A program made the translations under genes and the position numbers. From a bacterium (lineage in GTDB: Bacteria; Patescibacteriota; Microgenomatia; UBA10105; UBA927): a DNA stretch of 64,000 nt. The notes under the pieces are model-generated. The model worked only from the letters and a program-made list of their open reading frames with translations, was not told where the DNA came from and did no database searches. The stretch is taken from assembly GCA_021817785.1 (NCBI GenBank), contig JAKAFY010000003.1, positions 4,376-68,375 of the forward strand, read 5' to 3'. How positions within the stretch are numbered: the stretch's first letter is position 1; the number at the start of each line of letters is the position of its first letter. This document shows, piece by piece, positions 3,357 to 62,548 of the stretch.

Positions 3357-4534
3357 TTTTTTAAATACTGTTTGCCTTTGAGCTTGTCCGGTAGCAGACT
3401 GTCGTTGCCGTATGCGTGGTATCCTTTTCCATAGTCCAGTTCCTTCATCAGTTTTGTCGGTGCGTTTCTGATGATAAGCGGTATAGGAAGGTTCCCGTGC
3501 TTTTTTACGTCGTCTACTGCCGCAAAGTATGCATCATAGGCACTCCGGTCTTTTTTCGCAAGGGACAGATACGCGACCCCGTGGGCTAAATTTTCCTGGC
3601 ACTCGGGATAGCCGATTTTGTTACACGCATCAAACACTGCGTTGGCAACGACCAGTGCGGTAGGTTGCGCGAGCCCTATGTCTTCACTGGCAAACACTAC
3701 CATACGCCGCGCGATAAACAACGGATCTTCACCGGCTGCTACCATACGCGCCAGATAGTAGAGTGCCGCATCAGGGTCGCTTGCCCGCATGCTTTTGATG
3801 AACGCGCTGATCGTATTGTAGTGTTCCTCCCCTGTGCGGTCGTACTGGAGCATTTTCCGCTGGGCTGCTTCTTCTACATCTGCTGCCGTAAGCTTTTTGC
3901 TTTTCGTGAGGGTTGCCGCTATTTCGAGTGTCGTCAGTAACGCACGCGCATCTCCGTTGGCTATTTCAAAAAGAAATTGCGCTCCCTCTTTGTCTATCGT
4001 TTTTTTGATATAGCCGAGTCCTCGTTGCATGATCTCTTCGAGTTCGGATTGTTCCAACGGCTTTAACACCAGTACCCTACATCGGGATAACAGCGGGGAT
4101 ATGACCTCAAATGACGGGTTTTCTGTGGTGGCACCGATAAAAATCACCGTCCCGTGCTCGACTGCCGGAAGCAGCGCGTCCTGCTGGGCTTTATTAAACC
4201 GGTGGATTTCGTCGATAAACAGGATCGTCCGTTTGCCGTCTCGGGTCGTCCGTTCCTCCGCTTCATGGATGACGCGGCGTACATCCGATAACGTAGACGT
4301 TACCGCTGAATGGGATTCAAAATAACTGTCGGTGAGGGTTGCCAGAAGTTCCGCGAGCGTCGTCTTGCCGCATCCCGGGGGTCCCCACAAAACCAGCGAC
4401 GGCAAAAATCCGGACGCGAGCAGTTTACGGACAATGCCCTGGTCCCCGACAAGGTGCGTTTGTCCTACGACATCGTCTAAGGACGCGGGACGAAGTATAT
4501 CGGCAAGCGGACGGCTGCTTCTTCTGTCTGTCAT
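3353..4534 (-). CDS. rarA: replication-associated recombination protein A (AAA+ ATPase RarA/MgsA)
   Basis: Walker A GPPGCGKTTLA, Walker B ILFIDEIHRFNK, MgsA C-terminal helical domain. Confidence 0.9.
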   Translation of the reverse strand: MTDRRSSRPLADILRPASLDDVVGQTHLVGDQGIVRKLLASGFLPSLVLWGPPGCGKTTLAELLATLTDSYFESHSAVTSTLSDVRRVIHEAEERTTRDGKRTILFIDEIHRFNKAQQDALLPAVEHGTVIFIGATTENPSFEVISPLLSRCRVLVLKPLEQSELEEIMQRGLGYIKKTIDKEGAQFLFEIANGDARALLTTLEIAATLTKSKKLTAADVEEAAQRKMLQYDRTGEEHYNTISAFIKSMRASDPDAALYYLARMVAAGEDPLFIARRMVVFASEDIGLAQPTALVVANAVFDACNKIGYPECQENLAHGVAYLSLAKKDRSAYDAYFAAVDDVKKHGNLPIPLIIRNAPTKLMKELDYGKGYHAYGNDSLLPDKLKGKQYLKK

Positions 4535-4578: not shown

Positions 4579-4593
4579 CAACCCCAGGGGTTG
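4579..4593. repeat. REP-like palindromic unit CAACCCCAGGGGTTG (copy 1 of 5)
   Basis: Exact 15-mer in the rarA-metK intergenic gap; same unit as the copies around the RAYT gene. Confidence 0.7.
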
Positions 4594-4597
4594 AAAA

Positions 4598-5713
4598 CTA
4601 TGAGACAATTTTTTCCCAGGGAAAGCCGGTGCGCCCAAAGTGGCCGTAACGCGCCGTTTCTCGATAGATGGGCCGTCGGAGATTCAATCCTTTTAAAATC
4701 CCCGGCATGGAAAGATCCAGGAGTGACCAGGCGAACGCTTCGATGTCTGCCAATGGCTTTTTTTCCGTGCCAAACGTCTCTATGGCTTTCGCCAACGGCT
4801 CGCGTTGGCCGATGACGTATGCCACCCGTACTTCCGCTCTATCAGCAAGCCCTTTGGCCACTATGTTTTTGGCGATATAGCGGGCAGCATACGCACCGCT
4901 CCGGTCGACTTTGGTGGGGTCTTTACCGGAAAATGCGCCGCCGCCGTGCCGCGCAAACGCGCCATAGGTATCCACAATGATTTTTCTGCCGGTGACACCG
5001 GTATCGGATGCGGGACCGCCGATGGCCCATTTCCCTTTACTACCATTGACGATAACGTTTTCTATGGGTGGAGCTTTCATGTTATATTTCTTCAACACCG
5101 GCTTGACCACTTTTTCGTACAGAGCGACTTTTAATTTCTCGTTGGTCATAGTGGTGTCGTATGGCACGGCCAGCACGATCCGATCTACCGCCACCGGCTT
5201 GTCATTTTCGTAGATTACTTTTACTTCGCTTTTGCCGTCTGGACGCAAAAACGGGAGAATTTTTTTCTCCCGCGCTTCATCCATACGCTCTACCAGACGA
5301 TGGGCCAAAACTAATGGCAGCGGCATATACTCCGGCGTTTCATTGGTGGCGTACCCGAACATCATACCCTGGTCGCCTGCCCCACCGTCATCTACACCCA
5401 CGGCAATATCGGGAGACTGCTGGTGGATGTAGACCGAAATCGGTGATTTATCCGTAAAGTTGTAGATCGACTTGGTGTATCCTAACGACTTGATCGTTTT
5501 CCGGGCGATCACCTCATAATCCAGCTTTTTCTTGCAGGTGACTTCTCCGGCCAACACGATGCGGTTGGTCGTCACCAACGTTTCAACTGCTACACGAGCC
5601 ATGGGGTCTGCCGCAAGCGCCGCGTCTACGATGGCATCGGAAATCTGGTCGCAAATTTTGTCGGGATGGCCGGAAGCTACGGATTCGGATGTAAAATGGG
5701 TGAGTTTTTTCAT
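4598..5713 (-). CDS. metK: S-adenosylmethionine synthetase
   Basis: GHPDKICDQISDAI and other MetK signatures; start placed at ATG (MKKLTHF) preceded by AAGGAGGG RBS. The ORF track extends upstream to a GTG at 5761. Confidence 0.95.
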   Translation of the reverse strand: MKKLTHFTSESVASGHPDKICDQISDAIVDAALAADPMARVAVETLVTTNRIVLAGEVTCKKKLDYEVIARKTIKSLGYTKSIYNFTDKSPISVYIHQQSPDIAVGVDDGGAGDQGMMFGYATNETPEYMPLPLVLAHRLVERMDEAREKKILPFLRPDGKSEVKVIYENDKPVAVDRIVLAVPYDTTMTNEKLKVALYEKVVKPVLKKYNMKAPPIENVIVNGSKGKWAIGGPASDTGVTGRKIIVDTYGAFARHGGGAFSGKDPTKVDRSGAYAARYIAKNIVAKGLADRAEVRVAYVIGQREPLAKAIETFGTEKKPLADIEAFAWSLLDLSMPGILKGLNLRRPIYRETARYGHFGRTGFPWEKIVS

Positions 5714-6167: not shown

Positions 6168-6182
6168 CAACCCCAGGGGTTG
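6168..6182. repeat. REP unit CAACCCCAGGGGTTG (copy 2)
   Basis: Exact copy 90 bp upstream of the RAYT gene. Confidence 0.7.
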
Positions 6183-6243: not shown

Positions 6244-6258
6244 CAACCCCAGGGGTTG
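6244..6258. repeat. REP unit CAACCCCAGGGGTTG (copy 3)
   Basis: Exact copy 14 bp upstream of the RAYT start. Confidence 0.7.
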
Positions 6259-6271
6259 GCTACTATAAGCT

Positions 6272-6901
6272 ATGAGCACGCCGGTTCGATATATTCAGAC
6301 AAACGTACCGTATCATATTTATAATCGGGGCAATCGTAAGTCCGAAATATTCCTGCATCAAAAAGATTATCTGCGATTCCTTGATCACATACGGGAGTAT
6401 AAGCAGCAATATAATGTGCGGATCTATTGCTACTGCCTGATGTCGAACCATTTTCATTTGCTCGCTTCATCCTCCGAAGAATCCGGGCTTACTACTTTTA
6501 TGCTTCGTCTGTCCACGAGTCACGCTAAATACTTCAACATGAAATATCACATGGTAGGCAGGCTGTTCCAAGAGCGTTTCCGCGCCAAGCCAGTTGAGTC
6601 CGACGAATATTTCCTCCATCTTTCCCGGTATATACACTTAAATCCCGTATCCGATGATATCGAAACGCTCACCGCGTTATATACAAAGCCATATGAAGAA
6701 TCCAGCAACGTACGAGCAGCACTTCTGGAATACCCCTGGTCTTCGTATCACGAGTATCGCACGGAATCAGCGGATATATGCGATATACACACCATACTGA
6801 ACTATTTTTCAAAAACACATGCCAATCTCTCGTACACCAATTTCGTCGAATCGAGTATTCCTTCTGAATCCAGCCCTATAGTTAGCAACCCCTGGGGTTG
6901 A
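6272..6901 (+). mobile_element. REP-associated tyrosine transposase (RAYT), IS200/IS605-like Y1 HUH transposase
   Basis: 209 aa; YHIYNRGNRK, HUH motif YCLMSNHFHLL, downstream catalytic Tyr region (YIHLNP); flanked by inverted REP units. The last 5 codons (SNPWG) are encoded by a REP copy. Confidence 0.75.
6886..6900. repeat. REP unit, inverted orientation CAACCCCTGGGGTTG (copy 4)
   Basis: Overlaps the RAYT 3' end. Confidence 0.7.
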
Positions 6902-6937: not shown

Positions 6938-8275
6938 TCAACCCCTGGGGTTGAGAGGAGTGAAGCCGGCTTTGCCGAAGGCGATGCGGTCGAGGACCCG
7001 CTGTTCCATGTCGAGCATCCGGCCTGGAGTGACGACGAAATTGCCAAACCGATCCGATACCCGGTCTATGGCCGCCGTAAGGCTGCGTTTTTTGTCGTCT
7101 TCCGGAAGAAGCGACAATTGTGCCGCTTCCCGCTCCAGATGATAACTATAGATAGCCAGTATGCGCACGGGATTTTCCGGAGCGGCAGCAAGCATGCGGC
7201 GGTACCATTGGTAAAAGTCCATATCCGCGTAGAGGGCAGCAGACAGTTTTTGCTGCGTATGCCAGTGGGTGTGATCGGCAAACAATAACGATATCCCCAC
7301 TCCGGATGCCGTGCAGCCGTCGTCCCGGAGGCGTTTGCCCATTTTCATGGTAAGCTGCGAAAGAATCTGCCACAGCCGGGGATCTGTCGCTGTATACGAT
7401 TTTGGCAACGCATACGACTGACCGAAGCTCTTCTGAAGCTCTTCCTTTTCATCAAATGTCTTGTACATCACGCCGTCTTCCCACCCGTGAAGCCTCTGCC
7501 ACCAGTGATACCCCACGATCGAATGAAACGCCCGCCCTAACGCTTCCTGCGACGCAGAGAGCATCGCCAACGGCGTGGCTATACCGCCATAGCGCAACCT
7601 GGTTGCGTTTCCTTCCTTGATGCCGCATAAATCTTCCAGCTTGAGTGTGCTAAATACGTCTTCTATGGTTTCCCGGGTGATCCACCGCAGCCCGTCCGGC
7701 TTTTCTAGCCCGGATGCGACTTTGGCCAGATACCGGTTGGGGGCTATCCCTATGGACACCGTAAGCCAGTCTCCGATTTCATCCCGGATGCGTTGCTTTA
7801 TGTCCCTGCCGATGTCCTGCATGGCTGGAATTGTTTTCTGAATCATGAATTCAGAATCAGGAATTATGGGAATATTGTTTCTATATTTTTTTAGACTTCG
7901 ATAGAGCGCTGGCGTATTTTTTACATCCAGCACCATTTCATCGATGGATTCCACGCTGAGCGCATCGGTGTAGCTTCCCAAAAGTGCCGTGAGCTGGTGG
8001 TTGACCAGCCGGTATTTGTCGGGATCCGGCGGCAGAATTATTAACCGGGGATACATAAACTGCCCTTCACGCACGGACATACCGGTTTTGATCCCCAGAC
8101 GTTTGGCTTCTTTGGACGCAGCTAATATGCAGCCGTTGCCCGTAGCATACGCCGCAACGACCAGGGGTTTCCCGCGAAACAACGGATTGGCCTGCTGTTC
8201 TACCGTGGCAAAACAGGAATTCAAATCCACATGCATGACGGTCGGAGGTGCAGGGTTAAATTTCATAATTTTCAA
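6938..8275 (-). CDS. dinB: Y-family DNA polymerase IV
   Basis: MHVDLNSCFATVEQ catalytic N-terminus, UmuC/DinB palm-finger layout, little-finger domain. Confidence 0.9.
   Translation of the reverse strand: MKIMKFNPAPPTVMHVDLNSCFATVEQQANPLFRGKPLVVAAYATGNGCILAASKEAKRLGIKTGMSVREGQFMYPRLIILPPDPDKYRLVNHQLTALLGSYTDALSVESIDEMVLDVKNTPALYRSLKKYRNNIPIIPDSEFMIQKTIPAMQDIGRDIKQRIRDEIGDWLTVSIGIAPNRYLAKVASGLEKPDGLRWITRETIEDVFSTLKLEDLCGIKEGNATRLRYGGIATPLAMLSASQEALGRAFHSIVGYHWWQRLHGWEDGVMYKTFDEKEELQKSFGQSYALPKSYTATDPRLWQILSQLTMKMGKRLRDDGCTASGVGISLLFADHTHWHTQQKLSAALYADMDFYQWYRRMLAAAPENPVRILAIYSYHLEREAAQLSLLPEDDKKRSLTAAIDRVSDRFGNFVVTPGRMLDMEQRVLDRIAFGKAGFTPLNPRG
6939..6953. repeat. REP unit, inverted orientation (copy 5)
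   Basis: Overlaps the dinB stop codon; the dinB C-terminal residues LNPRG are REP-encoded. Confidence 0.7.
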
Positions 8276-11001: not shown

Positions 11002-11081
11002 TACCTCCGAAGATCATCAGACGAAACATAATCCACCAATAGGCTGTCAGCACCGAGGGTTGGTAAAGACTTCGGTTAGTA

Positions 11082-11119
11082 TGTACATGTGTTCGTCGCC
11101 CACACACCGGGGTGTGTAA
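11082..11119. repeat. 38-bp direct repeat DR1 (TGTACATGTGTTCGTCGCCCACACACCGGGGTGTGTAA)
   Basis: Near-identical to DR2 at 12014; contains the hairpin ACACACC-GG-GGTGTGT; lies about 65 bp upstream of the 11186 ORF. Confidence 0.75.
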
Positions 11120-11185: not shown

Positions 11186-11863
11186 ATGGCATCGGGAAAC
11201 AAAAACGAGTTATTCAAATCTAGACCTGGGTTTCTTAGTGAAATCGATAGCTTCAACCGATTTTTATATGAAATACACCCACCAAAACTGGAAGAATTAC
11301 AAACCGTTAGAGATGTTCTTGGAGATAGATTTACTGCTCATTTAGCCGACTTACACGCACCATTGTATGTCTTCAATGGACAATCAGGTCTCAACACAAT
11401 TAGTTATCAAAGTGAAGAACGCGGCTCTAATACCCATTCCTTCTTTCACAAGTATCGCAGAACTAACTATGCATCCATCATAGACGGATGGATTGTTTTT
11501 ATAAATACTTGGAAATCAAATGCCAGTTCAAAATTTCGTCCAAATAAAGCCGCAAGATTTGACTTTATGTTGCTAGACGATTGGATGAATGAAGACAACT
11601 TCCGTTTGGCCAATACAAAAAAATTGAAAGCGGATGTGCGGTCAGCCGGCTTATTTACTAGAGGCTCAAGCGTACTTAGAAAAATTCAAAGCTTAGTATT
11701 AAGTGTGCCCGAAGATTGCAGAATAGACATATATTCAGCAAATCTGCAAAGAGAAAAAATATATAGAAAAATGGTAATGAATCATAATAATATTATTGTT
11801 CACAAAAATTATGAAGATGCGGCATCACCCCTCACTAAGCTGATCAGAAGATTAAATCAATAA
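11186..11863 (+). CDS. hypothetical protein (225 aa), low-GC, bracketed by DR1/DR2
   Basis: About 38% GC against about 55% genome background; no recognisable domain. Confidence 0.5.
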   Translation: MASGNKNELFKSRPGFLSEIDSFNRFLYEIHPPKLEELQTVRDVLGDRFTAHLADLHAPLYVFNGQSGLNTISYQSEERGSNTHSFFHKYRRTNYASIIDGWIVFINTWKSNASSKFRPNKAARFDFMLLDDWMNEDNFRLANTKKLKADVRSAGLFTRGSSVLRKIQSLVLSVPEDCRIDIYSANLQREKIYRKMVMNHNNIIVHKNYEDAASPLTKLIRRLNQ

Positions 11864-12013
11864 TTTTGATAATAAATTTACCCTAATCAACTCCACAACT
11901 CAACAAACAATTTATTACACAATGACGTTTCTAATCCTCTCGACAACTGATAGCTTTTGTATTGATCTACGCTGCACATGGCCGTCCGAGGTGGCCATGA
12001 CTTCGATTCGTTT

Positions 12014-12051
12014 GTACATGTGTTCGTCGCCCACACACCGGGGGTGCGTAA
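12014..12051. repeat. 38-bp direct repeat DR2
   Basis: TGTACATGTGTTCGTCGCCCACACACCGGGGGTGCGTAA; differs from DR1 by one inserted G and one T/C. Confidence 0.75.
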
Positions 12052-18166: not shown

Positions 18167-18269
18167 AATCAGCGCATTATAGCAATCCAACCCTATGTGT
18201 ACAACGCATGTCATCTCTGTTTACTACCCGCACATTGCATAGGACGAAGAAGCCGGTATAATAGAACGT

Positions 18270-25891: not shown

Positions 25892-25938
25892 AGGAATGCT
25901 CTGGCACGCACGATCGCGCTTTGCTATAATTGCTCCAT

Positions 25939-26010
25939 GGGTCGGTAGCTCAATGGTAGAGCAGTAGCCTTTTAAGCTATTGGTTCTGGGTTCGAGCCCC
26001 AGCCGACTCA
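25939..26010 (+). tRNA. tRNA-Lys (UUU)
   Basis: Acceptor GGGTCGG/CCGACTC, D arm GCTC-AATGGTA-GAGC, anticodon loop CTTTTAA, T arm CTGGG-TTCGAGC-CCCAG, discriminator A; TATAAT 9 bp upstream. Confidence 0.85.
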
Positions 26011-26017
26011 CTAGATA

Positions 26018-26087: not shown

Positions 26088-26104
26088 AGCCCCAGCCGAC
26101 TCAC
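26088..26104 (+). repeat. direct copy of the tRNA-Lys 3' end (AGCCCCAGCCGACTCAC)
   Basis: 17/17 identity to the tRNA T-stem and acceptor 3' strand, 78 bp downstream, preceded by the hairpin TCCCGC-CAA-GCGGGA. Confidence 0.65.
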
Positions 26105-26192: not shown

Positions 26193-26435
26193 ATGCCAAA
26201 AGTTACAGTTGAAATACCATCAAATTTAAGAAGCGTGCTACAAACGCTCGGCATCGAGGTCGACCAAAATAAACCAGTAACATGTCGCGATCCATCCTGC
26301 AGATTGCGAGGATGCCGTTTGGTACGACAAATGGTTGAAGAGTTTTCACACGCAAAGGGTCTGAAAAACCAGCGGAGTTTTCTTTTGAGTCTTCGTGATG
26401 CTGCACGCGAAGACAATTGTGAGGTTATTTCCTGA
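26193..26435 (+). CDS. hypothetical small protein (80 aa)
   Basis: ORF only; several Cys (CRDPSCRLRGC). Confidence 0.3.
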   Translation: MPKVTVEIPSNLRSVLQTLGIEVDQNKPVTCRDPSCRLRGCRLVRQMVEEFSHAKGLKNQRSFLLSLRDAAREDNCEVIS

Positions 26436-26534
26436 TTAAACTTGCAAGAAGTTGACGCATTTACGCGTAATACACCTCAGGTCAAAGACTTGCGTCGAGA
26501 CAAAATATCTCCGTCTACAACCCTATAATATTTC

Positions 26535-26565
26535 CAAGGACAGTCTTCCATAAGGACAGTCCCTG
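26535..26565. promoter_or_regulatory. operator-like tandem site AAGGACAGTC-N7-AAGGACAGTCCCTGA overlapping the nuclease promoter
   Basis: Immediately downstream of TATAAT (26524-26529); contains the palindromic core GGACAGTCC; a near-identical site recurs at 27369. Confidence 0.5.
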
Positions 26566-26637
26566 ACGGCGCTGGGTATGCGCAGATTTTGTAATCTACC
26601 ATACTGAACCAATTGATCATCGCTGGTATGATAGTAT

Positions 26638-27312
26638 GTGTCACGCAAAAAAAGGAAAAAGAATATATCACTACCGCGGAGCATACTGACCCGCCTGGGG
26701 CTTACAGCCATAGGGACAGGTATGGCCATCCTCATCGGATCAAACGTACTTTCTGTCCCCTCCTCTACCGCGATCTCCGCCTTTGACGGCGATACCTTTG
26801 TCACCAAAGAAAAGCAGTACATCCGGCTTTCGGGAATCGACGCGCCGGAGACGGGTCGCTGCGGCAGCACCGAAGCCAAAAAGGCACTGGAATCGCTAGT
26901 CATCGGAAAACCGCTGTATATCAAAGTTCTCTACCACACCGGCGCCCGGAGCAACGGATTAGTCTACGGCAAATCCGGACTCGTAAACGCCGAAATGCTG
27001 CGGCAGGGCTGGGCTATATACAATGATCGGGACAACGTGGATCTGCCGGAGCTGGCCAAAGCCACCAAAGAAGCGCGGGAGAACAAGCGCGGGATATTTA
27101 GCAGTCTGTGCACCCAAACGGTAAACGCCGAAAAACCATCCTGCGACATAAAGGGGAATGTCCTGGAAAACGGGGACAAACGGTACCACCTGCCTAGCTG
27201 CGCGTCCTATGCTGCGACGGTCGTCCAGCTGTATAACGGGGACACATGGTTTTGCACGGAGACGGACGCAAAAAAAGCTGGGTTTACTAAATCCGATCGG
27301 TGCTTTCCGTAA
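26638..27312 (+). CDS. secreted or membrane-anchored staphylococcal-nuclease (SNase/thermonuclease)-like nuclease
   Basis: N-terminal Lys-rich region plus TM helix, SNase motifs DGDTF...IRLSGIDAPE...R, C-terminal Cys-containing extension (CDIKGN...YHLPSC). Confidence 0.75.
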   Translation: MSRKKRKKNISLPRSILTRLGLTAIGTGMAILIGSNVLSVPSSTAISAFDGDTFVTKEKQYIRLSGIDAPETGRCGSTEAKKALESLVIGKPLYIKVLYHTGARSNGLVYGKSGLVNAEMLRQGWAIYNDRDNVDLPELAKATKEARENKRGIFSSLCTQTVNAEKPSCDIKGNVLENGDKRYHLPSCASYAATVVQLYNGDTWFCTETDAKKAGFTKSDRCFP

Positions 27313-27368
27313 CAAGCCTATCTGTAAATATCACATTGAACCACTCGTAACTGCACAACAATTTCTAC

Positions 27369-27399
27369 AGGGACAGTCCCCTACAAGGACAGTCCCTGA
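27369..27399. promoter_or_regulatory. second copy of the GGACAGTCC tandem site
   Basis: AGGGACAGTCCCCTACAAGGACAGTCCCTGA, same orientation as the site at 26535, about 830 bp away; followed by the palindrome GCAAAGATCTTTGC and a 26-codon ORF. Confidence 0.5.
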
Positions 27400-27752: not shown

Positions 27753-28229
27753 TTACCCATCATGAGAGCTAGGCGTACGCAGAGAAAGAATTTTTTGGAT
27801 AAGCAGGAGGTCTTTTTCCCGGATGATCGGCAGATTTTCAAACGTAAAAAACTTCGCATTCACAACTTCTGTCGAGGGGGTAAATGTCCCACCAATAAAG
27901 GCACCGATATAGACAATGTCTAGTCGAGCTGTTTCTCGGTCTGTGCGGATGTTATACCGGGTATCAGCGCTTATAACCAATCCGGTTTCTTCTTTAACTT
28001 CCCGCTCCAACCCTTCTTTGGGATGTTCTTTCGCTTTGATATAGCCCCCGGGCAGACCCCAGGAAACCGCACGGTAGCTGTGTTTGAACAAAAGCACTTC
28101 GTGTTTGTCGTTAAAAATCACACCGGTCACCCCTACCAAAAATTGATCCTGGAACACCCTCATGAGCATAAGCTGAAGGTTTTTGGGCAAATGAAGTGCT
28201 TTCCACAGTTTGGCGAGTAAGCTACTCAT
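27753..28229 (-). CDS. NUDIX hydrolase
   Basis: Nudix box GGYIKAKEHPKEGLEREVKEETGL. Confidence 0.8.
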   Translation of the reverse strand: MSSLLAKLWKALHLPKNLQLMLMRVFQDQFLVGVTGVIFNDKHEVLLFKHSYRAVSWGLPGGYIKAKEHPKEGLEREVKEETGLVISADTRYNIRTDRETARLDIVYIGAFIGGTFTPSTEVVNAKFFTFENLPIIREKDLLLIQKILSLRTPSSHDG

Positions 28230-60663: not shown

Positions 60664-60737
60664 TTGAAAGTTTATAAAGTTTCAAGTTTTTAACCTTATG
60701 AACTTTATGAACTTTATGAACTTTCGAACTTATTATG
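60664..60737. repeat. 9-bp tandem repeat array E (forward then inverted units)
   Basis: ttgaaagtttataaagtttcaagtttttaaccttatgaactttatgaactttatgaactttcgaacttattatg; encodes the polX C-terminus KFESS*. Confidence 0.85.
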
Positions 60738-62519
60738 TAACCAACCGTTAAATTTATTATACTCCAGCGTGTTTACGATGTCATGTTTCGTGCTCCACCC
60801 GCGTCGTGCCACCGATACGCCGTAGCGCATGAGCGTCATGTGCTCCGCAGCATGCGCGTCCGTGTCTATACAAAAGCGGATGCCCATGTTGCGGGCGTCA
60901 TACACCAATGTGTCGGGCAGATCCAGTCGTTCGGGGTATGCGTTTATTTCCAGCGCGATATCGTGTTGTTTTACCACCTCAAAGACGGCGGGCCAGTCCG
61001 CATCTATGCCTTCCCTGCTTCCCAGTAGTCTTCCGGTAGGATGCCCGAAGATCCGGACCTTTGGGTGGGCAGTCAACGCCCGGATCAATCGTGCAGTCAC
61101 GACCTCTCGTGGTTGCGTAAACGCGGAATGGACGGAAACGATGACGGCATCCACATATTCCAGTGCCTCATCCGGCAGAGCGAGTCTTCCGTCAGGCAGT
61201 ATATCCACTTCGCACATGAGGAAATAATGTGTTCGTCCTTTCACGCGGTCTTTCCACGAGGAATATTGGTGTTCATATGCAAGCCTCCGGCGCTTCATTA
61301 TGTCAACAATCTGTTGCTTCGTGTGGTTCGTTATTCCGGGATTATGATCGGAAAATCCGATGTACTCGTACCCCAGGCGTTCTGCCGTCGTCAGCAATTC
61401 CCCTATGGAATCCTTTCCCAAATCATGGGATGGCTCCAGATCATAATTGGAATGCGTATGCAGATCGCCGCGGATATCGCCAAGCTCGACAAGATCCGGC
61501 AATCCGCTGGGTCTCCCCTGTGCCCGACACAGAGAAGCGGATATCTCTCCGCGGTCTTCCCGCAGTTCAGGAGGTATATAGGTCAGCCCGATTGCTTTAT
61601 AAAACGACTCTTCGGTTTCATATTCGGTGAGTTTTCCGGTACGTACGGATTTTATGCCGTGTTCGGAAAGGGACAGTCCCCGGGATAACGCCAGCTCGCG
61701 AAGCTGTATATTGTGGTTTTTGGACCCGGTAAAGTACTGAAGCATGGCGCCGTACGCTTTCGGCGACTGTACCCGCAAATCTGCCTGTCTGCCGTTTGTC
61801 AAAAGCAGCGTCGCCCCGCGCGTACCCTGATCCACGATGCGCTGATGCGGAAACGAAACAAATTGTTCGATGATCGTTTGTGGCTCAGTCGTGGCTACTG
61901 CTATATCGATATCCCCGATCGTCGATACCTGCCTGCGCAGACTCCCCAACACGTCATATCGGGTGGCTTTTCCTTTCTTTTTTAGGTGAGCGATAAGTTC
62001 CTGCGCGATTTGGTCAGCATACGGCAATGGCATCCGGTTTTCTTTGATCTGCCCGCGCTTATAGATGGCTATAGACTCCAGGATGACACCCTGCGACTTC
62101 TCGCCGAATCCCTCAAGCGGCGCTATTTTCCCGGATTTTGCCGCTTTTTCGAGGTCGGAAACGACGGTTTTTGCGTTATCGAGCTTCAGCGTGGTTACCA
62201 ATGTGTATGCTTTCTTGGGGCCGATACCGGGAACCAGCAGCAATGGAAATATTGCCTGTGGTACTTTTGCGAACACACTCTCCCAATGTTTGGACTTGCC
62301 GGTTTTAAACAATTCATCCAGATTACTGGCGATTCCTCCTCCCACACCGGGGATATCTTCCAGTTTTCCATCATCCCACATGTCTTTGACGTCACTCGTC
62401 AGATGTTCGATGCTGTCGGCAGCCCGTTCATAGGCAATGATACGGAATCTGTTTTCGTTCAGGACTAAGTATGCCGCGGCTACTTTACGAAGCAATTGTG
62501 CGATCTCTAGATTGGTCAT
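60714..62519 (-). CDS. polX: family X DNA polymerase with C-terminal PHP domain
   Basis: N-terminal HhH/8-kDa and pol-beta-like palm (GSLRRQVSTIGDIDIAV), C-terminal PHP (HTHSNYD...). Confidence 0.9.
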   Translation of the reverse strand: MTNLEIAQLLRKVAAAYLVLNENRFRIIAYERAADSIEHLTSDVKDMWDDGKLEDIPGVGGGIASNLDELFKTGKSKHWESVFAKVPQAIFPLLLVPGIGPKKAYTLVTTLKLDNAKTVVSDLEKAAKSGKIAPLEGFGEKSQGVILESIAIYKRGQIKENRMPLPYADQIAQELIAHLKKKGKATRYDVLGSLRRQVSTIGDIDIAVATTEPQTIIEQFVSFPHQRIVDQGTRGATLLLTNGRQADLRVQSPKAYGAMLQYFTGSKNHNIQLRELALSRGLSLSEHGIKSVRTGKLTEYETEESFYKAIGLTYIPPELREDRGEISASLCRAQGRPSGLPDLVELGDIRGDLHTHSNYDLEPSHDLGKDSIGELLTTAERLGYEYIGFSDHNPGITNHTKQQIVDIMKRRRLAYEHQYSSWKDRVKGRTHYFLMCEVDILPDGRLALPDEALEYVDAVIVSVHSAFTQPREVVTARLIRALTAHPKVRIFGHPTGRLLGSREGIDADWPAVFEVVKQHDIALEINAYPERLDLPDTLVYDARNMGIRFCIDTDAHAAEHMTLMRYGVSVARRGWSTKHDIVNTLEYNKFNGWLHNKFESS

Positions 62520-62548
62520 AGTTCTTATAGTATAATGCAAAAGTTAAT

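Follow-up and report, generated by a model that had tools for sequence, protein, structure and literature searches.

The DNA analysed here, referred to as the window, is a stretch of 64,000 nt (positions 4,376 to 68,375 of contig JAKAFY010000003.1, assembly GCA_021817785.1) from a bacterium of the Patescibacteriota (Microgenomates, Gottesmanbacteria-like). It carries a gene for an SNase-like, putatively secreted and membrane-anchored nuclease that lies between two copies of a short direct repeat, downstream of a tRNA-Lys gene and facing a convergent NUDIX hydrolase gene (Table 1). The original prediction, made from the letters of the window alone, suggested that the repeats could be either operators of a repressor or recombination sites of a small gene cassette. 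They are read here as two diverged members of a compact hairpin family (~29–33 nt) that resembles the repetitive extragenic palindromic (REP) elements. The hairpins around the nuclease are probably generic transcript-end hairpins and not a nuclease-specific switch or cassette border, because the repeat occurs in many unrelated phyla, usually just after genes. The nuclease gene itself is an unremarkable member of the thermonuclease family in a Patescibacteria bacterium, and its probable transcript has a stem-loop at either end.

Sequence and fold of the two repeats

A direct repeat of 40 nt was identified by repeat search in two copies (26527–26566 and 27360–27399) that are 80 % identical and spaced by 833 nt; depending on where the ends are set the repeat is 33–40 nt long, and similarity stops beyond that. 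Its motif GGACAGTC was present six times in the window against 0.96 expected, a count reached in none of 100 shuffles, and four of the six sites form two pairs (26538/26554 and 27371/27387), the other two (20374, minus strand; 61671) being single and within coding regions. The bracketing of a single gene by direct repeats, as originally described, is borne out by the repeat search and by this excess over shuffles. An exact GGGACAGTCCC unit at 61670–61680, inside a PolX-like gene (60714–62540, minus strand), is either a chance occurrence or what remains of half an element.

The two copies share the 15-mer AAGGACAGTCCCTGA exactly. Six of 33 positions differ, every one of them outside the GGACAGTC cores, and all four cores are intact. 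Two details of the earlier description required correction: the first half-site of copy 1 reads GGACAGTCT, ending in T, and not GGACAGTCC, ending in C, and the spacers, given as 7 and 5 nt, measure 6 nt (TTCCAT) and 3 nt (TAC).

Each repeat constitutes one imperfect palindrome, in which the second GGACAGTC unit, 16 nt from the first, is nearly its complement. The fold of copy 2 is CAGGGAC-A-GUCC / GGAC-A-GUCCCUG; the RNA folding energies are −18.8 kcal/mol for the plus and −21.8 kcal/mol for the minus strand (z about −4.3), and the DNA fold z values are −4.9 and −5.9. Copy 1 folds in the same register as the family and more weakly (RNA, −11.2 kcal/mol, z −1.5). The RNA minimum-free-energy structures of both copies consist of identical pairs, arranged as an outer stem, a 1×1 mismatch, an inner stem and a short loop.

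Compared with the canonical instance ACAGGGACAGTCCCCTGCGGGGACAGTCCCTGA, seen in locus L128, copy 2 is the same except for three G-to-A changes in the inner stem, and copy 1 carries nine changes, mostly GC-to-AT transitions. Both copies have A at positions 15 and 16, and A16 occurs in none of the 139 other instances listed; because they share this derived base, the copies are duplicates of each other and go back to one already diverged ancestor in this lineage. A C10-to-T change in copy 1 restores pairing with A16 (a compensatory C–G to T–A replacement, positions 10/16), and the pairing seems to be under selection in the window copies.

A hairpin family in many phyla

Genomes (one per species, 596 Gb, two strands) were scanned for the exact pattern GGACAGTC-N8-GGACAGTCCC, which was found in at least 120 stretches against about 17 expected by our estimate from its 18 fixed bases. 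The matches listed span more than ten phyla or classes and genome GC contents of 39–73 %. They include Omnitrophota, Planctomycetota (with Kuenenia), Aminicenantes/Acidobacteriota, Nitrospirota, Actinomycetota (with Gaiellaceae), Myxococcaceae (Myxococcota), Oxalobacteraceae (one isolate genome among them), other Proteobacteria, Anaerolineaceae (Chloroflexota), and one metagenome-assembled genome each of Eubacteriales and Saccharibacteria. Many of these genomes contain several matches, and at least 12 sampled stretches belong to Oxalobacteraceae UBA6704.

The 139 instances listed have the consensus R-GGGACAGTCCCC-TNC-GGGGACAGTCCC-Y, that is, R-GGGAC-A-GTCCCC-TNC-GGGGAC-A-GTCCC-Y. The cores and the A–A mismatch are not findings, because they were fixed by the window-derived pattern. 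Positions that the pattern left free were 96–99 % conserved (G at 0, CC at 9–10, G at 16). One stem pair covaried between G–C (64) and A–U (44), a second between C–G (90) and U–A (12) or G–C (6); 97.3 % of the cells were paired, as opposed to 33–61 % with the partners slid. No pairing was present in the family alignment outside the core of 29–31 nt.

A covariance model, R1, was built from 131 distinct instances in other genomes, with none from the window. Applied to the window, R1 gave 38 bits for copy 2 (E 5.9e-6) and 19.6 bits for copy 1 (E 0.04), values that are partly circular in that the invariant cores and the A–A mismatch were imposed by the search pattern; the next match had an E value of 1.2, and nothing else in the 64 kb fell below E ~1. 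No further hairpin copies were found in ~19 kb of adjoining contigs.

Rfam was searched with the locus, with 18 hairpin-rich loci and with the repeat region at 11–12 kb and returned tRNAs only, a full-text literature search for the sequence string returned primers only, and BLAST of the consensus hairpin against plasmid and phage collections gave nothing meaningful. Viral contigs yielded three matches, the hairpin being rare there. A single metagenome contig matched the window-type variant; this match was rejected as chance because it lies in a protein-coding repeat (NGDSPVKGQSP).

Placement of the hairpins in other genomes

Gene contexts at the 120 listed loci were derived from heuristic open reading frame (ORF) calls filtered by third-codon-position GC content (GC3). 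The intergenic placements listed were convergent in 30 cases, tandem in 33 and divergent in 10; the closest gene 3′ end was a median 37 nt away (many at 0–25 nt) and a 5′ end 101 nt away, and the orientation of the hairpin relative to the neighbouring genes was roughly random. The hairpins were found singly, in inverted doublets, in tandem arrays that repeat every 42–50 nt and in sets of three units 15–16 nt apart. In nearly all other genomes listed the hairpins stand singly and do not form pairs that bracket a gene. At locus L030 a gene lies between two directly oriented copies (3522–3547 and 4652–4677, 1130 nt apart).

As read from the consensus, the hairpin is free of stop codons in all six frames, and copies within genes were found in frame, encoding peptides such as GQSPAGTVP. 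In the valyl-tRNA synthetase (ValRS) of a Saccharibacteria genome (L038, 3032–3057) the peptide RGLSPSGTVPG replaces a variable segment with a net gain of three amino acids; the boundaries of this insertion are not clean. A copy in UvrA (L069, 6646–6671; also L054, L073, L124 and L129) occupies an orthologous site in five Nitrospira species, with equal stems and differing loops, and two further in-frame copies lie in giant ORFs of Omnitrophota (L092, 5352–5377; L098, 449–474).

The ValRS of other Patescibacteria (P0247, P0249, P0254) contains different in-frame inserts that resemble translated palindromic repeats, for example SSRACRGIP, VIPVKTGIQ and PELVEGSL. Several hairpin-repeat families may invade coding sequences in Patescibacteria genomes. 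A sub-family in Omnitrophota and Planctomycetota (L030, L036, L044, L096, L104, L127) has ~45 conserved nt after the hairpin on the other strand (GCGAGATAAGT...GATAYGCCAAA), followed by a ribosome-binding site, ahead of unrelated genes (ACP-like, PyrB-like); judged by this arrangement, it could be a mobile promoter or leader module.

All-against-all clustering of the ORFs at the 120 listed loci brought up ubiquitous response regulators and sigma-54 activators only and so no gene that accompanies the hairpin, and no Y1 transposase gene recurred near the hairpins at these loci.

The nuclease gene and its relatives

The product of the bracketed gene matched the Pfam SNase family with 36.2 bits (cut-off 21), and its translation contains the FDGDTF and RLSGIDAPE motifs (Ca-binding and catalytic). 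The N-terminus is basic and hydrophobic, a predicted signal-anchor that would tether the protein to the membrane, and the C-terminus forms a Cys-rich domain (PF27542, weak match). The assignment as an SNase-like nuclease with an N-terminal anchor, made in the original prediction, is thereby upheld at the level of Pfam match and translation. The search gave 175 homologues, mostly from Patescibacteria and annotated as thermonuclease or micrococcal nuclease; the long N-terminus is conserved in homologues. No match to the protein was obtained in the PDB at E ≤ 0.01, and a protein scan of representative genome contigs returned no relative, so that the species is not one of those represented there. 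The gene has a GC content of 55 %, against 41–46 % in its flanks.

A second SNase paralogue of 219 aa, with the same anchor and Cys-rich C-terminus, is encoded in the same genome ~3.4 kb past the end of the window (L142, 10363–11022); no hairpins flank it. Homologues with 61 % identity from other Microgenomates (L001–L004, L135) had no such sites and no flanking repeats, in a search confined to these contigs that did not include the two closest homologues, P0002 and P0003. The hairpins are not specific to the nuclease gene. The region around homologue P0006 (61 % identical; L001–L004) is dense in Y1_Tnp and DDE transposase genes and restriction-modification fragments; nuclease genes of this family thus change place between variable regions in related genomes.

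The gene and both repeats were present in all 13 same-species contigs (near-identical ones include GCA_021839525.1), with the copies unchanged and no presence/absence polymorphism. All six same-species contigs from other samples are identical to the window over 1.5–8.6 kb save for five substitutions within 18 nt (27271–27288) at the C-terminus of the nuclease, which produce K212Q, T217I and two synonymous changes; the cluster looks like a small recombination patch or a strain marker.

In relatives, the LapA–NUDIX pair is kept (L011, L012, L014), the next gene differs in each, and the region from tRNA-Lys to NUDIX shows no synteny. The NUDIX proteins of the nearest relatives are 91 % and 77 % identical, and nucleotide homology to L011 stops at window position 27787. 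An empty site was sought through these NUDIX orthologues without success, since the nearest relatives are no longer syntenic past the NUDIX gene.

Organisation of the locus and neighbouring features

Table 1. Coordinates of the nuclease locus and its surroundings (window positions).
Feature	Position	Strand	Remarks
tRNA-Lys (UUU)	25939..26011	+	upstream landmark; ARAGORN; Rfam tRNA 72.5 bits
tRNA-Lys 3′-end exact 17-nt copy	26088..26104	+	original 25995–26011; 93 nt downstream; 2 matches vs 0.05 expected
TATAAT box	26524..26529	+	likely −10 element of nuclease promoter; 8 nt before first GGACAGTC
Hairpin copy 1 (CCAAGGACAGTCTTCCATAAGGACAGTCCCTGA)	26534..26566	+	more decayed member; 71 nt upstream of nuclease start codon
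SNase gene, 224 aa, GTG start	26638..27312	+	Pfam SNase 8.7e-9
Hairpin copy 2 (ACAGGGACAGTCCCCTACAAGGACAGTCCCTGA)	27367..27399	+	starts 54 nt past nuclease stop codon; 353 nt from NUDIX stop
NUDIX hydrolase gene, convergent	27753..28229	−	Pfam NUDIX 2.4e-15; last gene syntenic with relatives

The tRNA-Lys gene is preceded by a promoter-like CTGGCA-18-TATAAT at 25901–25930 (promoter scan). The copy of its 3′ end looks like an att-like scar (attL/attR) of an earlier integrated element since lost. Contrary to the earlier placement of the locus directly after it, it is not contiguous with the repeats and ends ~420 nt before repeat 1. These ~420 nt contain no credible gene. An 80-codon ORF in this interval (ORF80, 26193–26435), considered as a ribbon-helix-helix regulator from its N-terminus, was rejected as a gene because it had no homologue among 1.84 billion representative proteins and is uncalled in the gene calls of public assemblies. 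Three TATAAT boxes (26047, 26166 and 26524) follow the tRNA-Lys gene within 500 nt. On the other side of the nuclease, the ~350 nt between copy 2 and the NUDIX gene hold no long ORF.

Other repeat-bearing loci in the window

A lone gene for a 209-aa Y1 transposase (IS200-like, HUH) is located at 6272–6901 on the plus strand, with two CAACCCCAGGGGTTG repeats upstream and two CAACCCCTGGGGTTG repeats downstream (6168–6182, 6244–6258, 6886–6900 and 6939–6953); a fifth lies 1.6 kb off at 4579–4593 (0.12 expected). The gene and its repeats are a classic arrangement of a REP-associated tyrosine transposase (RAYT) with REPs, in a Patescibacteria genome. The repeat beside the Y1 gene is not that of the nuclease hairpins, although a central CAG/CTG is common to the two.

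Direct repeats of 52 nt (11061–11112 and 11992–12043, 88 % identical) bracket an AT-rich orphan gene of 225 aa (11186–11863) that has no Pfam match, and the jump in composition at 11186–11863 suggests an inserted segment. No fold signal and no Rfam match were obtained for the 52-nt repeats. The parallel drawn earlier between this gene and the nuclease locus proved superficial, the 52-nt repeats being unrelated in sequence to the GGACAGTCC hairpins and without a fold signal.

Promoter context and proposed role of the hairpins

TATAAT is ~5-fold enriched in the non-coding DNA of the window and occurs 8–12 nt before tRNA-Glu, tRNA-Lys and several start codons. The box just upstream of copy 1, which the original prediction had pointed out, was confirmed, and it is probably a genuine −10 element because of this enrichment and this placement before tRNAs and start codons. 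The consensus promoter scan did not call a −35 element at this box, and upstream of copy 2 such a TATAAT box is absent. Transcription would start at ~26536–26538, on the first bases of hairpin copy 1. TATAAT boxes at 18257, 18684, 13074 (minus strand), 9926 and 25925 likewise lie 8–12 nt before start codons or mature tRNA 5′ ends; their distance from start codons suggests that leaderless mRNAs are common in this organism.

The reading to which we give slightly better than an even chance is that of a REP-like hairpin pair with a role at each end of the transcript. Copy 2 most likely closes the nuclease mRNA with a 3′-end hairpin, which would terminate or stabilise the message and would also hold back transcription arriving from the convergent NUDIX gene. 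Copy 1 would form a 5′-terminal stem-loop on the nuclease mRNA, because its position coincides with the expected first nucleotides of a message made from the TATAAT box; stem-loops at this position are known to protect bacterial mRNAs from 5′-end-dependent decay. It could possibly also serve as an insulator that stops read-through from the tRNA-Lys side. That one hairpin arose from the other within this lineage follows from the bases that the copies share; the manner of the duplication, the transcript start and any terminator or stabiliser activity of the window hairpins are inferred. The comparisons themselves establish that the copies belong to the family, the register of their fold, how the family behaves in genomes and the lack of hairpins at other nuclease genes.

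Several points weigh against this proposal, in addition to the partial circularity of the R1 scores. A plus-strand U-tract is absent at both window copies, and the terminator scan found no terminator-like site there (a weak minus-strand call was made at 27386–27365). Copy 1 follows a promoter and not a credible gene, ORF80 being homologue-free. In the ~83 kb of this genome that were covered there are only two copies, short of the abundance typical of REPs. One copy on each side of a single gene is unlikely for independent random insertions, and differences confined to positions outside the GGACAGTC cores would fit a protein-binding site equally as well as stem conservation.

Comparison with known systems

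The behaviours matched here have been described for REP elements by Di Nocera et al. 2013 (PMC3733652). The hairpins resemble REPs and REPINs in being imperfect palindromes of 20–40 nt with several copies per genome, as singles, inverted doublets and tandem arrays. They also lie mostly between convergent or same-direction genes near 3′ ends (in the window this is true of copy 2), have G–T stem pairs, and include some copies in frame inside genes, repair genes among them. REPs are usually species- or genus-specific and tied to a RAYT transposase. The present hairpins, in contrast, have an 11-nt core that recurs across many phyla, and no GTAG/CGTC tag or dominant flanking tetranucleotide (GTAG/CTAC in ~7 of the 139 instances listed); nor do they reach the high copy number of REPs in the 64 kb and ~19 kb of this genome. 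Unlike in a REPIN–RAYT system, the RAYT-like gene of the window is flanked by CAACCCC-W-GGGGTTG and not by GGACAGTCC; because of this different palindrome, the hairpin family is without a known cognate transposase.

With intrinsic terminators and stabiliser stem-loops the pair shares a GC-rich hairpin directly after the stop codon (copy 2) and one at the predicted 5′ end (copy 1), and some members from AT-rich genomes (L035, L103, L046) have A-runs and T-runs at their sides, as bidirectional terminators do. The window copies are nevertheless not classical intrinsic terminators, because they lack the plus-strand U-tract, and the stem sequence of the family is conserved across phyla, whereas terminator stems normally drift.

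Alternative explanations

A broader reading, which we regard as unlikely and yet worth stating, takes the GGGAC-W-GTCCC hairpins for a cross-phylum mini-palindrome, either mobile by itself or the site of a widespread factor, with the nuclease locus formed by hairpin-mediated duplication or gene capture. Rickettsia palindromic elements and yeast mitochondrial GC clusters are selfish palindromes that are tolerated inside coding sequences. The hairpin is like these elements in being a stop-free palindrome found in frame in the essential genes for ValRS and UvrA; it is much shorter than the Rickettsia elements (~100–150 bp), and no target-site duplication was identified.

An operator pair is improbable. 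The GGAC-A-GTCC near-palindromes would bind repressor dimers, sites at +1 to +30 would keep the nuclease gene from being transcribed, and DNA looping would be possible through the downstream pair. The position of copy 1, which starts 8 nt after a TATAAT acting as −10 so that its dyad overlaps the transcript start, would suit this mechanism (for copy 1 only), as would the four intact cores with all six differences outside them; moreover, the single GGGAC-W-GTCCC units and three-unit arrays with a 15–16 nt period that occur elsewhere are unexplained by a single hairpin. No DNA-binding protein adjoins the locus, however: a Pfam scan of ~26 neighbouring ORFs yielded no repressor candidate, integrase or recombinase, and ORF80 has no homologue. 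Also counting against it, the half-site centres are separated by only 6 bp and the pairs by 16 bp, spacings at which helix-turn-helix dimers do not usually bind. The sites are missing at the nuclease orthologues and the paralogue, the same sequence elsewhere lies mostly after genes, in either orientation, and also inside coding sequences, and the compensatory replacement in copy 1 speaks for selection acting on base pairing. The operators proposed originally are thus not supported, given the same hairpin beside unrelated genes in many phyla, the lack of a regulator nearby and homologues without sites.

Cassette borders, the other function first proposed, are rated as improbable as operators. 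The nuclease gene would have recombined into a resident hairpin and duplicated it (attL/attR-like), or would have been captured between copies, and excision would be possible. The copies are mutually closest, with A15/A16 and the CA...TGA ends in common; they stand in direct orientation around a single gene of deviating GC content, in a tRNA-Lys to NUDIX region that is non-syntenic in relatives and carries an att-like tRNA scar. The decayed inner stem of copy 2, as read from its letters, leaves a 12-7-12 layout like that of tyrosine recombinase core sites, and the gene between two direct copies at L030 provides a parallel. Integron cassettes are comparable in that a single gene of promoterless size lies between imperfect palindromes in direct orientation. 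They differ in having attC sites of 57–141 nt, against 33 nt here, with R″/L″–L′/R′ boxes that are missing from the hairpins (no RYYYAAC/GTTRRRY), in depending on an integron integrase, which was not found, and in that here a promoter-like TATAAT lies inside the unit. The idea of a recombination cassette is not supported by the neighbourhood either, no recombinase being encoded among the ~26 ORFs. It is further opposed by the invariable presence of gene and repeats in the 13 same-species contigs, by the failure to find an empty site, by the metagenome scan for the window-type variant, which gave a chance match only, and by the hairpin standing singly, not in gene-bracketing pairs, in nearly all other genomes listed.

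Very improbable is a non-autonomous element like those of IS200/IS605 (PATE-like), in which the hairpins would be left-end and right-end structures, recognised as single-stranded DNA by a Y1 (HUH) transposase acting in trans, and the nuclease would be cargo. IS200/IS605 ends are hairpins in direct orientation, as are the two copies here; their stem has a mismatch, the genome encodes a Y1 transposase (6272–6901), and the nuclease homologues in L001–L004 adjoin Y1_Tnp genes. Against this, the Y1 transposase of the window has the other palindrome, CAACCCC-W-GGGGTTG, at its sides, inverted as is typical of RAYTs, a second cassette copy is absent, the family members are isolated ~30-nt units without cargo, and the Y1_Tnp-rich L001–L004 lack such a hairpin.

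Chance resemblance of two intergenic stretches of mixed AT and GC content has a negligible probability: it might explain the first 10 nt (5′) of the 40-nt repeat, which with 7/10 matches are possibly a chance extension by the tool, and is refuted by the site excess (six GGACAGTC sites against 0.96 expected; one set of paired units within 12–20 nt with at most two mismatches against 0.12 in shuffles), by the identical 15-mer and by the score of the family model (E 6e-6).

Implications

For the nuclease locus itself little changes, and the wider point is a repeat that is not local, with the same 11-base core from Omnitrophota to Saccharibacteria. Annotators should be warned that two such repeats on either side of a gene are not necessarily operators or att sites. 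With a stem that is constant across phyla, no tag of the usual kind and no transposase in sight, the hairpin prompts one to ask by what agent it is copied or recognised. If the reading as a cross-phylum mini-palindrome were true, the nuclease locus would be a primitive cassette built by such hairpin repeats; and if the hairpin were mobile in its own right, this mini-palindrome could insert itself behind genes and also, in frame, within essential ones such as those for ValRS and UvrA.

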